Below, in pieces: positions 12,824-16,615 of a stretch of 64,000 nucleotides of DNA. The position numbers and the translations under genes were made by a program. The first letter of the stretch is position 1. The number at the start of each line of letters is the position of its first letter. Origin of the DNA: Naegleria gruberi (taxonomy: Eukaryota); NCBI GenBank assembly GCA_000004985.1, contig GG738848.1; one strand, 5' to 3'. A model generated the notes under the pieces. That model made no database searches and was not told the DNA's origin. It saw nothing but the letters and a program-made list of their open reading frames with translations.

Positions 12824-15800
12824 TCAATCATGTTTTCTTTTATTGTTAAAGTTTGGCTCAAATAATTGCATTTGTTCGATTTTTTCTAAGATTGAACTAG
12901 CACTTAATCTTTGCTTTGGATTACAACAAATCATTTTCAAAAGTAAATATTGACAACTGGTGGCAAGATTAGTTCTATTTCCAATTATTGAATTGAAGAA
13001 AGCATTTTCATCCATTTGGTGTTTGATAAGCGTGTCCGATATCTGTTCCTTTCAATTTGAATAAAGAAGTATTGAAATCATTTGTTAATAATTGATAGAA
13101 TATACATCCTAAACTCCAAATATCACTCTGAGGATAAAACAATCCATCCAAAATACTTTCTGGAGATGAATATTGAATCGTCCCTTCGAATGCAGTCATT
13201 CCAACTCTTCCTTCATATCTTGAAGATCCCCAATCACCAACAACAATTGAAATAGTTTCAGATACGTTTCTGGTTTTCTTTACAAATATATTTCCCAGCT
13301 TCAAATCTCTATGGACCATTCCTTTTGAATGGAGAAACACTAATGCACTTGATATCTGTTTAGTTATTTGAAGGGCTGTTTCTAAGGTTAATTTCTTTGA
13401 ATTTTTATACAACCAACTTCTCAAATCTGATTCGTATAATGGCATTACTATACATATATTTTCCATCCTCAACAATTAACAATTGTATAAGCCAAAATTG
13501 GAACAATATGTGGATTTTCATATACATTCAACTCGCTCATAACAACAATTTCCTTTAGTTCAGTGCCATTATTATTTTCAAGCTCAATAATTTTGACAGC
13601 CACTGATTCCCTAGATTGAGATTCTGTATACCTGTAAACATTTCCATTTGATCCACTTCCCAACTTATTTTCTCTGATATATTCTTTATCCTTAATTTTG
13701 AATTGAGATAAAGAGTCTTTTATCACCATTCTTAGTGGAATTAAATCATCAGTATCATCATAATTGATGTTCAATCGGGTGGTAAGATCTTGCTTATATG
13801 TTTTTTCTTCTTTCTCCAATATCTCAAAGTCAAAAAACTAACTACACAACCTATTATAATGACTGAAATTAGAACAATGATGGAAACAATCACAATTGGA
13901 GTAACAATATCATTCCTTTGTACACAATCATCTCCTGAATATCCATCACTACAAGAACAAGTATTATTTGAAACACATTCTCCATTTTGGTTACAATTTG
14001 AAAGACTTTCACAACTAGGAGTCATACAATCTATTCCTTTCCAACCATCAAAACACTGACAGGTTGATAGAACACATGTACCGTGACCATTGCAAACATT
14101 TTCATTTGTGGAGACTATTCCTAGACATACAGTTTCTGAAATACTACACATTGGCCCCGTCCATCCATGTTGAACACTTACATTGGTCAAAATCAATACA
14201 TGAACCATGCTCTGAGCACACTTTCAATCCATCTCCTGCAATGCCAAAACAGTAAGGTATGTAACAGGTGTTGCCAGACCACCCCTCTTTGCATTGATAT
14301 TGATTTGGTCCAATACATTTTTGTGCACGAGATGAAGGAATATCACAGGATAATGCTGAACAATCCGTACTACCTTTCCATCCACTATGGCATTGACAAT
14401 TTCCAATATTTATACAATCACCACTGCAAACACTACTATCATTCGCTAAATACCCATAACAACGAGGAATGCTACAAACTTCACCAAACCATTCATCCAT
14501 GCATTGATATTGATTTGGACCTGAACATGTAGAATGATTAGGAATTGGACTATCACAAGAATATTTGGAGCAATCAATACTACCTTTCCAACCACTACTA
14601 CATTGACATGAATCTATTGTGCTACATTTTCCATGTCCGTCACAAACATCAGAATTTGTTGAGGGTATTCCATGGCAGGTTGAAAGAGTTCCAACCCAAC
14701 CTCCCAAACATTGAAATTGATTAGGACCAATACAGATGGATTCATGAGAAGAGGGAGTGTCACATGAAAATTGTGAACAGTCCTTATTACCTTTCCATCC
14801 TGAATTGCATTGGCATGTGTCCACATCAACACATTGACCATGTCCTCCACATACTGAAACATTTGTTGGCAATTTCGAAAAACAGGTTGCAATTTCACAC
14901 AAGTTTCCACCCTGTTTGACATTCATATTGGTTTGGTCCAATACATTTAGATGCATGGTTGGATGGTGAATCGCATGAAAATTGAGAACAATCCTTATTT
15001 CCCTTCCAACCTGAATTACATTGGCATGTGTCTACATCAATACATTTACCATGACCTCCACAAACAGTATTATCTAAGGAAGATAACCCAAAGCAAGTTG
15101 TTGTTCCAACTATTGTTGACATTCTAAATGTGTTGGAGATTCTTCTAATAACATTATTATCTGAAATATCTGGATAACTAACAATCTTGTTTGGATGAAC
15201 AGCGCAACCCTTTGGATGATCGAATTGAGCTGAACCAGCATCACCATTCACTTTAAGAATAAGAATAATACATTTAACATGTTGACATAAATGAAAACTT
15301 ATTCCCATCATAAAAACCTTCATAACCATTTCCTGCCCTAGTTATTACAGTGCTGTAGTCTCCTCTCATTTCTCTAATTTTGTTATTGTTTGTGTCAACA
15401 ATTATCAAGGCTTTTACCGAGTCAACACAAATTGCAGAAGGTTCATAAAAAGAGGCAGATAAAGCAGGACCTTCGTCATTTCCCATCTTTGGAACTTCCA
15501 GCCAAGGTTGTTAACATACCATTTGATAGATCTAATTTTAATATTCTTTCTCTAGTTGGAAAAATAATAGAATTTCCAAAATTTGTGATTTGGGATGGTC
15601 TATTAAGGAATACTGAGAGTGCGTCAATAGGTGTCGAAAAAGGATAATATGTGCCATAGTTTCCATAGACCACCTTTACCTGTAGTGTTTTCACATTTAC
15701 AGAGAGTATTGATGAAGAACTTGACAAATATAGTTGACGATCTAATATTGAAATAGAGTTAACATAATTTTGATCATTGTAAAAAGTAAAAATTTGATCA

Positions 15801-16615
15801 TTTGCAACTACTTTGACCACATTATTTCCTTTATCCAAAATATACAATCTGGAATTGGAATAGAAAGCTTGGGTTGGATTAAAAAGCTTTGCTTTCGTTG
15901 GAATAATTAATTCTCCCCCACTACCACAAACACCTTTGAAAATAATTATTATATTAAATTCTAATTGTTTAAATTAATAAAACATACTTCCTGCTAAAAT
16001 CTTCAATGTTCCATCATTTTGCAATAATTTGATTTGACAATTTCCAGTGTCAGAAATTACTAGATTTCCTTCTGGTGATAATGAGACCCCATTTGGAGAT
16101 GATAATCCACTTGAAACAACAATTATTGCTTTTCCATTTGATATCTTAATAATATTTGAATTTCCACTGTCAGCAATATAAATATCTAAAGTATTGGGAT
16201 CGGCAAACATCCCTTTTGCACTGTTGATCCTTGCTCCTGAAACTCTCAAACTATTAATTAATCCATTGGACATGTCCACCACTCTTATCCTACTAGATGT
16301 TTCTTGCTTCCACAATAGCCATTTCCTGCAACAACCTTAATATCATTACTATCCATTCTCTTCACAGTACAAAACTCTGTATCCGTAGTATAATATTACA
16401 AAATCACCATCAGGGACAGCATGTATTGCATTAGAAAATATAGGGAAATCTAGGTAGCGAGTATTACCTATACTTCCAGCCACTGGAGTATGTAAGGATA
16501 GTACAGATGTTGTCTCAATACATTTGGACAGATGAGCCAAACTCAATAGAAATATCAACACACTGATCACAGTAATGATATTCATCTTATTCCTTCTCAA
16601 TGCCATTGATAACAC
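12824..16615 (-). CDS. Receptor-like protein kinase: signal peptide, NHL-type beta-propeller repeats, about six tenascin-type EGF modules, one TM segment, and a cytoplasmic kinase domain; multi-exon, with unresolved frame disruptions
   Basis: N-terminal MNIITVISVLIFLLSLAHLS. NHL-like DTGNCQIKLL / IYIADSGNSNIIKIS. Repeated modules CxGHGxCxxxDxCQCNSGWKGNKDCSQFSCDxPSxHxSxCIGPNQYxCxxGW. TM IVIVSIIVLISVIIIGCVVSFLTL followed by RKKKK. Kinase LGSGSNGNVY...VAVKII, HRDLKLGNIF, GDWGSS (DFG replaced by DWG), SPE. Confidence 0.55.
14144..15110. repeat. Tandem array of near-identical ~210-225 nt units encoding the EGF-like modules of the receptor kinase
   Basis: For example, 14761-14850 and 14972-15060 are more than 80% identical at the DNA level (cacatgaaaattgtgaacagtccttattacctttccatcctgaattgcattggcatgtgtccacatcaa versus cgcatgaaaattgagaacaatccttatttcccttccaacctgaattacattggcatgtgtctacatcaa). 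Confidence 0.7.

Follow-up and report, generated by a model that had tools for sequence, protein, structure and literature searches.

Plant receptor-like kinases (RLKs) and the Entamoeba transmembrane kinases are single-pass proteins that combine lineage-specific extracellular repeats with a cytoplasmic Ser/Thr-type kinase, and non-metazoan receptor-kinase families are known to expand and to leave pseudogenes. The teneurins, which are animal type-II adhesion proteins with an N-terminal cytoplasmic domain, carry teneurin-type EGF repeats in series close to the membrane and, farther out, an NHL beta-propeller. With respect to the kinase itself, CK2alpha is a constitutively active enzyme with DWG in place of the usual DFG motif, its Trp adding a hydrogen bond that disfavours the DFG-out conformation (PMC9608649).

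A 64,000-nucleotide stretch of Naegleria gruberi DNA (contig GG738848.1; hereafter the window) contains a locus whose likeness to these systems is partial. The family to which it belongs follows the same general logic as the plant RLKs and the Entamoeba kinases, with another type of ectodomain. As in teneurins, a membrane-proximal run of EGF repeats is combined with a more distal NHL propeller, and both EGF_TEN repeats and the propeller are recognizable in the locus copy; unlike teneurins, the Naegleria proteins appear to be type I with a signal peptide, their cytoplasmic part is a kinase, and neither the locus copy nor its paralogues gave a Pfam match to the YD-shell, FN-plug or toxin domain. 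Like CK2alpha (CSNK2A1), the family replaces Phe with Trp in the DFG motif and keeps the Mg-binding Asp; however, CK2, of the CMGC group, is soluble, the Naegleria proteins are predicted to be membrane-anchored, and no specific sequence relationship to CK2 was found. The locus itself, in N. gruberi NEG-M, is in our judgement likely to be an unprocessed pseudogene of recent origin that belongs to a small, lineage-specific family of receptor kinases, and most probably makes no working protein.

Domain architecture and paralogues

Six-frame translation revealed, on the minus strand from 16606 to 12824, a signal peptide, NHL repeats, teneurin-type EGF modules, a transmembrane (TM) segment, a stop-transfer stretch and a Ser/Thr kinase. 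The sequence as given has no continuous frame across this region. A conceptual translation of 16606..12824 was obtained by cutting out two introns and making eight 1-nt repairs, resulting in a CDS of 3660 nt and 1219 aa (hereafter the repaired protein), in which Pfam identified Pkinase (2.4e-42), EGF_TEN (8.9e-33), EGF_Teneurin (3.8e-28) and NHL (4.9e-11). The features are as follows:

12824–16606, minus strand: whole NHL-EGF-TM-kinase receptor gene, probably decayed; ATG at 16606, stop TGA at 12826–12824
16520–16606, minus strand: putative signal-peptide-like N-terminus (MALRRNKMNIITVISVLIFLLSLAHLSKC), from hydrophobicity; hydrophobic window at residues 6–31
15123–16519, minus strand: NHL-repeat (beta-propeller type) region
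13918–15095, minus strand: EGF region; four teneurin-type modules, each of two parts and ~70 aa, followed by three single EGFs
13825–13908, minus strand: TM helix (IVTPIVIVSIIVLISVIIIGCVVSFLTL), residues 856–890; Kyte-Doolittle maximum 3.4
13824–13801, minus strand: basic stop-transfer RYWRKKKK, directly after the TM helix (interval 13790–13824 shared with frameshift 6, below)
12884–13681, minus strand: protein kinase domain (Pfam Pkinase), residues 935–1200 of the repaired protein
13663–13637, minus strand: kinase G-loop
13603–13586, minus strand: kinase VAVK motif
13313–13290, minus strand: kinase catalytic loop HRDLKLGN
13238–13221, minus strand: kinase GDWGSS motif
13172–13155, minus strand: kinase SPE motif

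The domains and the two motifs HRDLKLGN and GDWGSS had been named in a first-pass annotation of the sequence, and were recovered in the repaired translation by Pfam and hydrophobicity analysis. Its figure of about six 60-aa two-part EGF modules is replaced here by the four ~70-aa modules and three single EGFs listed above, based on counts of seven canonical C.C..G[WY].G units and four CxGPNxxxC units. Exactly two hydrophobic segments were found in the repaired protein, the signal-like N-terminus and the TM segment, with the kinase following the latter, which points to a type-I topology. Scores for the individual domains were 145.6 bits for PF00069 (cut-off 31.7), 114 bits for EGF_TEN (cut-off 65) and 42.5 bits for NHL (cut-off 20; best repeat at 16105–16028), while TEN_NHL was above cut-off in the paralogues only and not in the locus copy. 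Tandem Repeats Finder did not find a tandem array in the EGF region, whose modules have diverged too far in DNA sequence, and Rfam and tRNA scans returned zero matches within the locus.

Two full-length N. gruberi paralogues were identified, XP_002675885.1 (‘serine/threonine kinase’, UniProt D2VJ61; 1623 aa) and XP_002670873.1 (NAEGRDRAFT_74151, D2VYK3; 1395 aa). Both have the same Pfam architecture and the same succession of signal peptide, NHL, two-part teneurin-type EGF, TM, basic stretch and kinase as the locus, and share GDWGSSR, TIQYSSPE and SDIWSLGC with it, identical. BLASTP of the locus against XP_002675885 gave a colinear alignment that covers 87% of the repaired protein at 34% identity. 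Since the intact paralogues carry kinase and ectodomain in the same order within one polypeptide, aligned to the locus from the ectodomain to the kinase end, the two halves of the locus were once one gene, as had been proposed in the first-pass annotation. These comparisons support the view that the locus descends from one gene for a type-I receptor Ser/Thr kinase whose ectodomain combined NHL repeats with teneurin-type EGF modules.

Among the three N. gruberi members the locus copy diverges most, with a kinase identity of 46–47% to the paralogues compared to 66% between the paralogues themselves, and with HRDLKLGN in its catalytic loop versus HRDLKQTN in theirs. It also has fewer EGF units and an NHL region shorter by ~200 aa; a three-way alignment with both paralogues showed NHL gaps of ~38, 55 and 40 aa in the locus copy, about three blade-sized segments being missing. 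Given that the intact paralogues resemble each other more than either resembles the locus copy, the reduced NHL region could reflect an ancient divergence between lineages and not decay.

One further member was found, giving four known here: a genomic contig from SRR28335221 in which the homologous kinase region is intact and interrupted only by one canonical GTATGT intron. Among word-indexed protein searches, one list was dominated by bacterial NHL proteins, another contained generic kinases only and a third missed both known paralogues; that orthologues from N. fowleri and N. lovaniensis do not occur in these lists therefore carries no information. The kinase alignment, used to scan JGI metagenomes, matched only generic kinases at 24–37% identity. 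No description of the family was found in the literature on the Naegleria kinome, NHL, EGF, teneurin and pseudogenes (the N. gruberi genome paper apart). Judged by sequence, it is probably a small, lineage-specific and uncharacterised group of type-I receptor Ser/Thr kinases of Naegleria.

Frameshifts and introns

Ten frame breaks interrupt the locus, comprising two GT-AG introns and eight frameshifts:

15934–15987, minus strand: intron 1, 54 nt, GTATGT...AAAG, canonical for the genome, with a donor type seen in neighbouring genes
15251–15317, minus strand: intron 2, 67 nt, weak and atypical GTTTTT donor; boundaries inferred from frame and NHL consensus only
16349–16369, minus strand: frameshift 1 (+1), 21-nt interval
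16295–16305, minus strand: frameshift 2 (−1), 11-nt interval (AAGAAACATCT), beside the ~38-aa NHL-blade deletion relative to the paralogues
15476–15490, minus strand: frameshift 3 (+1), 15-nt interval (AAAGATGGGAAATGA)
14903–14906, minus strand: frameshift 4 (+1), 4-nt interval, AAAC
14170–14173, minus strand: frameshift 5 (+1), 4-nt interval, TCAA, within an EGF C-x-C-xx-GW motif
within 13806–13790, minus strand: frameshift 6 (−1), at an A6 run
13469–13475, minus strand: frameshift 7 (−1), 7-nt interval between kinase subdomains IV and V
13010–13019, minus strand: frameshift 8 (+1), 10-nt interval in the kinase C-lobe, making the stop that terminates XP_002682136

Each of the eight frame changes was boxed into 4–21 nt by homology-anchored residues together with stop codons, and independent confirmation came from tblastn with an intact paralogue, where the HSPs alternate among the three frames; around frameshift 7, for example, HSPs at 13714–13478 (frame −1) and 13457–13038 (frame −3) lie 20 nt apart. 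No spliceosomal intron fits into the space available at these eight breaks (of ten in all), which rules out splicing there, and the first-pass view of a normal multi-exon gene thus gives way to one with only two introns, eight frameshifts that cannot be spliced and an annotation consisting of fragments. In genes of the window that could be read directly, introns measure 44–83 nt, and the donors of the other window introns are GTATGT, GTAAGT or GTTAGT. A scripted search for GT[ATG][ATC]GT...AG at the breaks found that every candidate either deletes homologous coding sequence or makes a stop. A full-length receptor cannot be translated from the locus as it stands, as the eight 1-nt-class frameshifts leave open pieces of at most 270 aa.

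Tiny introns of the Stentor type are out, the species being Naegleria and the window introns of normal size, as is Euplotes-style frameshifting at an AAA-stop, given that the shift at site 4 has to occur before a conserved Cys that itself lies far ahead of the stop. More generally, recoding of the transcript to a full-length receptor, whether by programmed frameshifting, transcript slippage, insertional RNA editing or unconventional tiny introns, would account for a coding sequence that looks preserved despite many frameshifts, and a candidate 50-nt GTTAGT...AAG intron (13842–13793) would allow the shift at site 6 to be skipped. This intron would, however, remove the TM end and the stop-transfer, which are coding-homologous in the paralogues, and a GTAAGT candidate at site 5 would make a TAA. 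The shifts (five +1 and three −1) fall at unrelated short sequences with no slippery motif in common, a run of at least six A being present at only one of the eight. In addition, the paralogues are annotated as single continuous products, the SRR28335221 contig requires no recoding beyond one canonical intron, and we know of no nuclear recoding mechanism of this kind described in Naegleria. We consider recoding extremely improbable.

Weighing decay against assembly error

The reference annotation at the locus consists only of two orphan fragments, XP_002682136 (103 aa, kinase) and XP_002682137 (144 aa, NHL/EGF). The existence of these gene models would be expected if each fragment were a small protein functional on its own, yet the 103-aa model begins at the Met of ‘GMVHRDL’, misses the entire N-lobe, including G-loop, VAVK Lys and alphaC, and is terminated by a stop that a frameshift produces. 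The 144-aa model starts with residues translated from intron 2, and both models sit within a region colinear with single proteins of 1400–1600 aa. Separate functional products are therefore very unlikely.

The unprocessed pseudogene that we favour is of this type because the two introns are retained, where a processed copy would lack them. Besides the frameshifts, lesions of a kind consistent with decay include the three NHL gaps, the loss of one junction Cys in EGF module 2 and of the conserved HG in module 4 (both relative to the paralogues), and the intron-2 donor. Surrounding sequence is in good order: the adjacent hexosaminidase gene (12694–10450) has two canonical GTATGT introns and zero frameshifts, the ribophorin-like and PreP genes of the window splice cleanly, and intact ORFs of 1013, 733 and 612 aa occur elsewhere. 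As to the species, window ORFs are identical to N. gruberi NEG-M XP_002681990, XP_002681992 and XP_002682144, which share a single 712,659-bp contig.

The main rival explanation is that the gene is functional and that the eight frameshifts arose as errors of base calling or of the consensus in a locally poor stretch of assembly. Several observations count for this explanation and against a pseudogene. After the eight repairs, zero in-frame nonsense substitutions are present in 1219 codons, the kinase catalytic residues are intact and nearly all EGF cysteines are kept. Every one of the eight shifts is repairable by ±1 nt and can be placed at a short A/T run, as would also fit base-calling errors; exact look-ups of window ORFs in assemblies yielded nothing against which the indels could be checked. 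The probability of zero stops given eight indels is ~0.01–0.26 depending on the substitution:indel ratio assumed, and ~0.1 at a ratio of ~5:1, which corresponds to the 26 mismatches and 5 gaps between the window and a 99.2%-identical strain.

On the other hand, such errors would have to begin and end exactly at the gene borders, as the genes on either side, 130 bp downstream and ~660 bp upstream, show none, nor do ORFs of up to 3 kb elsewhere; with eight errors in every 3.8 kb, an ORF of 3042 nt would have a probability of ~0.002 of remaining intact. No assembly gaps are nearby and no N gaps occur in the window, and the in-frame lesions (lost Cys, lost HG, missing blade segments) come in addition to the shifts. 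The N. gruberi genome was reportedly Sanger-sequenced at roughly 8x, and Sanger coverage of ~8x rarely leaves an error density of eight per locus. Taken together, we regard assembly error as unlikely and a young pseudogene as the probable explanation.

The DWG motif and the receptor-kinase family

The sole change to the DFG motif of the kinase is from Phe to Trp, and the catalytic set is otherwise complete, with the GSGSNG G-loop, the VAVK Lys, the alphaC Glu (LKEIV), the HRD Asp/Asn, the DWG Asp, the SPE Glu (SSPE) and the Arg of subdomain XI in place. GDWGSSR is invariant in four of four aligned family sequences, with TIQYSSPE and SDIWSLGC likewise conserved; being common to both paralogues and a contig from another sample, DWG is, at the sequence level, a conserved trait of the family. 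The first-pass annotation had taken the motif as a hint of a pseudokinase. The locus copy and the paralogues alike retain the VAIK Lys, HRD Asp and DFG Asp whose loss marks pseudokinases, and since the catalytic residues are complete and CK2alpha is an active DWG kinase, nothing in the sequences points to one. By analogy, altered regulation in the sense of CK2, i.e. a stabilised DFG-in state, would be a reasonable expectation. The catalytic loop HRDLKLGN is of the Ser/Thr type and not that of receptor tyrosine kinases, in which loops of the HRDLAARN or HRDLRAAN type are typical.

Protein and PDB match lists place the kinase domain roughly equidistant from many kinase groups. The best PDB match was an EGFR kinase construct (two-domain chain, 6.6e-24), followed by CDK4/6, PLK, ULK and MAPK chains (~1e-19 to 1e-16); plant lectin-RLK was represented by a single weak chain (7.6e-15) among the PDB matches listed, and no CK2 chain was among the 60 best. 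For the repaired kinase, an AlphaFold model based on the four-sequence alignment had a mean pLDDT of 59 and was too poor for inspection of the Trp or for a fold search.

For the intact paralogues, a working scheme can be suggested. The NHL propeller may bind a ligand or a surface outside the cell, and clustering of the receptors would allow the kinases to trans-phosphorylate the activation loop, the kinase being of the RD type with Thr residues in its activation-loop sequence (GMTAFEGTIQYSSPE). If the DWG Trp stabilises a DFG-in, active-like conformation as in CK2alpha, clustering would be a more important means of regulation than a DFG flip. In a stronger form, these proteins would be an independently evolved heterolobosean receptor-kinase class with a teneurin-mimicking ectodomain and a CK2-like DWG permanently in the DFG-in state, gated purely by clustering, the locus being either intact (its shifts assembly errors) or a very recent loss; we hold this full version to be rather improbable. 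A very recent loss would date the turnover of NHL-EGF receptor kinases.

The importance of the locus lies mainly in annotation, and its biological value is modest. Assuming a pseudogene, XP_002682136 and XP_002682137 (UniProt D2V1Y3 and D2V1Y4) would be pieces of one decayed gene, to be merged and flagged accordingly. The intact paralogues, and not the locus copy, are the right objects for follow-up. The family that they represent would be a further case of receptor kinases with lineage-specific ectodomains arising outside animals and plants, and may serve as a natural test case for the DFG-to-DWG change outside CK2.

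Composition of the locus and its surroundings

The receptor-kinase locus (window 16606..12824) lies on the minus strand between a hexosaminidase gene and a ribophorin-II-like gene, both putatively identified by reading their translations. The window has a G+C content of ~33%, no N gaps and short GT-AG introns, and three of its long ORFs are residue-for-residue XP_002681990, XP_002681992 and XP_002682144 of N. gruberi NEG-M, all on one 712,659-bp contig. Three tRNA genes were found, all distant from the locus.

Features of the locus and window (coordinates, strand, description)
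3277-3348, -, tRNA Met-CAT (tRNA scan)
48135-48207, +, tRNA Ile-AAT (tRNA scan)
55003-55075, -, tRNA Met-CAT (tRNA scan)
17270 onward, +, ribophorin-II-like gene
15987-15934, -, intron 1 (54 nt, GTATGT...AAAG)
15317-15251, -, intron 2 (67 nt, unusual GTTTTT donor)
13663-13637, -, G-loop motif
13603-13586, -, VAVK motif
13313-13290, -, HRDLKLGN motif
13238-13221, -, GDWGSS motif
13172-13155, -, SSPE motif
12694-10450, -, GH20-type hexosaminidase gene

Six-frame translation of 16800-12700 recovered every element listed by the first-pass annotation, in abutting or overlapping pieces spread over three frames. Removal of two introns, together with eight single-base repairs placed at short A/T runs, gave a conceptual CDS encoding a repaired protein of 1219 aa, in which Pfam identified Pkinase (2.4e-42, residues 935-1200), EGF_TEN (8.9e-33; 114 bits against a cut-off of 65), EGF_Teneurin (3.8e-28), EGF_2 (2e-21) and NHL (4.9e-11). 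Hydrophobicity revealed two hydrophobic segments only, one N-terminal and signal-like and the other a TM segment (residues 856-890) directly followed by RYWRKKKK. The EGF region had been described as six two-part modules of 60 aa; motif counting instead gave four of ~70 aa, in which a C.C..GW.G EGF is paired with a CxGPNxxxC..GW half, then three single EGFs.

Frameshifts and their origin

The breaks had initially been read as exon boundaries, a reading that fails for eight frame changes, each confined to 4-21 nt. The limits of each interval came from the outgoing frame (its stop codon and the final residue anchored by homology) and from the incoming frame (its last stop and the first residue so anchored).

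Frameshifts in the locus (coordinates, strand, interval and direction)
16369-16349, -, frameshift 1 (21 nt, +1)
16305-16295, -, frameshift 2 (11 nt, -1)
15490-15476, -, frameshift 3 (15 nt, +1)
14906-14903, -, frameshift 4 (4 nt, +1)
14173-14170, -, frameshift 5 (4 nt, +1)
13806-13790, -, frameshift 6 (17 nt, -1, at an A6 run)
13475-13469, -, frameshift 7 (7 nt, -1)
13019-13010, -, frameshift 8 (10 nt, +1)

Introns read directly in neighbouring window genes span 44-83 nt, and a spliceosomal intron fits into none of the eight intervals. Independently, tblastn of the intact paralogue XP_002675885 against the window returned adjacent HSPs in frames -1, -3, -1, -2, -1 and -3, two of which (13714-13478 and 13457-13038) are separated by just 20 nt. 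A scripted canonical-donor search of the frame breaks yielded two candidates of note and no more. The first, a 50-nt GTTAGT...ATATAAG intron (13842-13793, -), bypasses frameshift 6 but removes the TM end and basic stop-transfer, which align with coding sequence in the paralogues, and is probably a chance match. The second, a GTAAGT candidate at frameshift 5, was rejected because it would create a TAA.

The damage is limited to this one gene. The hexosaminidase gene, which starts 130 bp beyond the locus, has three exons, two canonical GTATGT introns and zero frameshifts; clean GTAAGT and GTTAGT introns occur in the ribophorin-like and PreP protease genes; and uninterrupted ORFs of 1013, 733, 612 and 590 aa are found elsewhere in the window. 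At eight indels per 3.8 kb, the probability of a 3-kb ORF still being open is ~0.002 by our own arithmetic. In the PreP/M16C presequence-protease gene (19317-22534, +), used as a control, the reading frame also changes between two abutting ORFs, and the change is explained by a 44-nt intron (20793-20836, GTTAGT...TTTAG); by this control, frame changes in neighbouring genes are ordinary introns.

Reference annotation at the locus comprises two small models only (window 12824-15329, -), which are fragments of a single broken gene. XP_002682136 (NAEGRDRAFT_62737, D2V1Y3, 103 aa, MVHRDLK...PNG; 'non-specific serine/threonine protein kinase' in UniRef) is without a kinase N-lobe and terminates at the stop made by frameshift 8, while the N-terminus of XP_002682137 (NAEGRDRAFT_62738, D2V1Y4, 144 aa) is translated intron 2. 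Independent small genes, or recoding, are very improbable even taken together.

We consider the locus likely to be a pseudogene: the lesions are limited to one gene, the contig is gap-free, the intron 2 donor is atypical and in-frame lesions relative to both paralogues are also seen. Of the latter, gaps of ~38, 55 and 40 aa fall in the NHL blades, two of them next to frameshift sites; in addition, EGF module 2 has lost one junction Cys and module 4 the conserved HG. This same pattern makes it unlikely that the eight frameshifts are assembly errors, an explanation favoured by the zero nonsense substitutions across 1219 repaired codons (5.6% of possible substitutions would give a stop). Window 27802-32692 was matched at 99.16% identity, with 26 mismatches and 5 gaps, by a contig of another N. 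gruberi strain (ENA ERZ929261). At this substitution:indel ratio of ~5:1, eight indels imply ~40 substitutions, 2.2 expected stops and P(0) ~0.1; ratios from 3 to 10 give values from 0.26 down to 0.01. The value of ~0.1 is compatible with a young pseudogene, yet leaves space for assembly error.

The ERZ929261 contig (4.9 kb) comes from a metagenome assembly (run ERR1078381, PRJEB11402), and its identity therefore indicates a closely related Naegleria strain in that sample. Within the matched region lies a 293-aa ATG ORF (29028-29906, +) whose exact sequence is recorded only in ENA and Logan gene calls. It is missing from the reference proteins of N. gruberi, has no recorded Pfam match and may be either a gene overlooked by the annotation or an ORF arising by chance.

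The receptor-kinase family and its DWG motif

The top homologue of the repaired protein was XP_002675885 (1623 aa), which aligns colinearly from NHL region through to kinase end, at 34% identity and with 87% of the query covered. In an exhaustive HMMER search of a 154-aa kinase piece against 1.84 billion representatives, three matches exceeded 50% identity, namely the locus's own fragment, XP_002670873 (1395 aa) and, from a Logan contig (SRR28335221), an ORF of 154 aa; all others were generic kinases. Both full-length paralogues carry NHL/TEN_NHL, EGF_TEN and Pkinase (Pfam). The Logan contig (1375 bp, genomic), whose source is probably Naegleria-like, holds a homologous DWG kinase region intact save one canonical 43-nt intron (GTATGT...AAATAG) inside the HRD motif (HR|D), a position not present in the window copy. 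Across these four kinases GDWGSSR, TxQ(Y/F)SxPE and SD(I/V)WSLGC are invariant; identity is 46-47% between the locus and the paralogues, and 66% between paralogues. A metagenome scan with the kinase alignment found no family members in JGI data.

The first-pass annotation had raised DWG as a possible pseudokinase sign, which was not borne out: the catalytic residues are all present and the motif is conserved in intact genes, making DWG a functional family trait. Of 450 kinase domains from proteins collected in this analysis, 396 have F at the DFG position, 23 have L, 12 have Y and 6 have W; with half of the W-bearing domains belonging to this family and three outside it, DWG is rare, not unique. 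In CK2alpha, the textbook DWG kinase, activity is constitutive and the Trp contributes an extra hydrogen bond that works against the DFG-out state (PMC9608649). By analogy the family's DWG may work as in CK2. The family's kinase is not specifically CK2-like. Unlike tyrosine kinases, it is of Ser/Thr type; the best PDB matches were a two-domain EGFR construct (6.6e-24), then CDK4/6, PLK, ULK and MAPK (1e-19 to 1e-16), and it has no close solved relative.

The ectodomain resembles teneurins in its membrane-proximal EGF and distal NHL regions. However, its topology is opposite and the YD shell and toxin domain are absent; the resemblance is therefore not membership. A second 'propeller + teneurin-EGF' combination occurs at 58803-61694 (-), also matched by the EGF region of XP_002675885 (tblastn), in two adjacent ORFs: one (59859-61694, -) encodes an RCC1-like beta-propeller (WD40_RLD 3.1e-43, RCC1), the other (58803-59747, -) a run of RCC1 repeats with teneurin-type EGF repeats after it (EGF_2, EGF_Teneurin, EGF_TEN 2.5e-10).

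As sequenced, the locus yields no receptor: its first ORF stops after 85 aa, and its longest open piece, 270 aa of EGF sequence, has no signal peptide. Judging from their architecture, the intact relatives would be type-I receptors whose cysteine-rich EGF stalk carries the NHL propeller at its distal end, and in which clustering driven by ligand or contact would lead to trans-phosphorylation of the RD kinase activation loop, the DWG Trp perhaps tilting the kinase to the active DFG-in state.

A literature search found no published description of an NHL-EGF-DWG receptor kinase family, whose members are already in databases as unnamed predicted proteins. We regard the locus as the decayed third copy of this lineage-specific family, that is, a family with a pseudogene.
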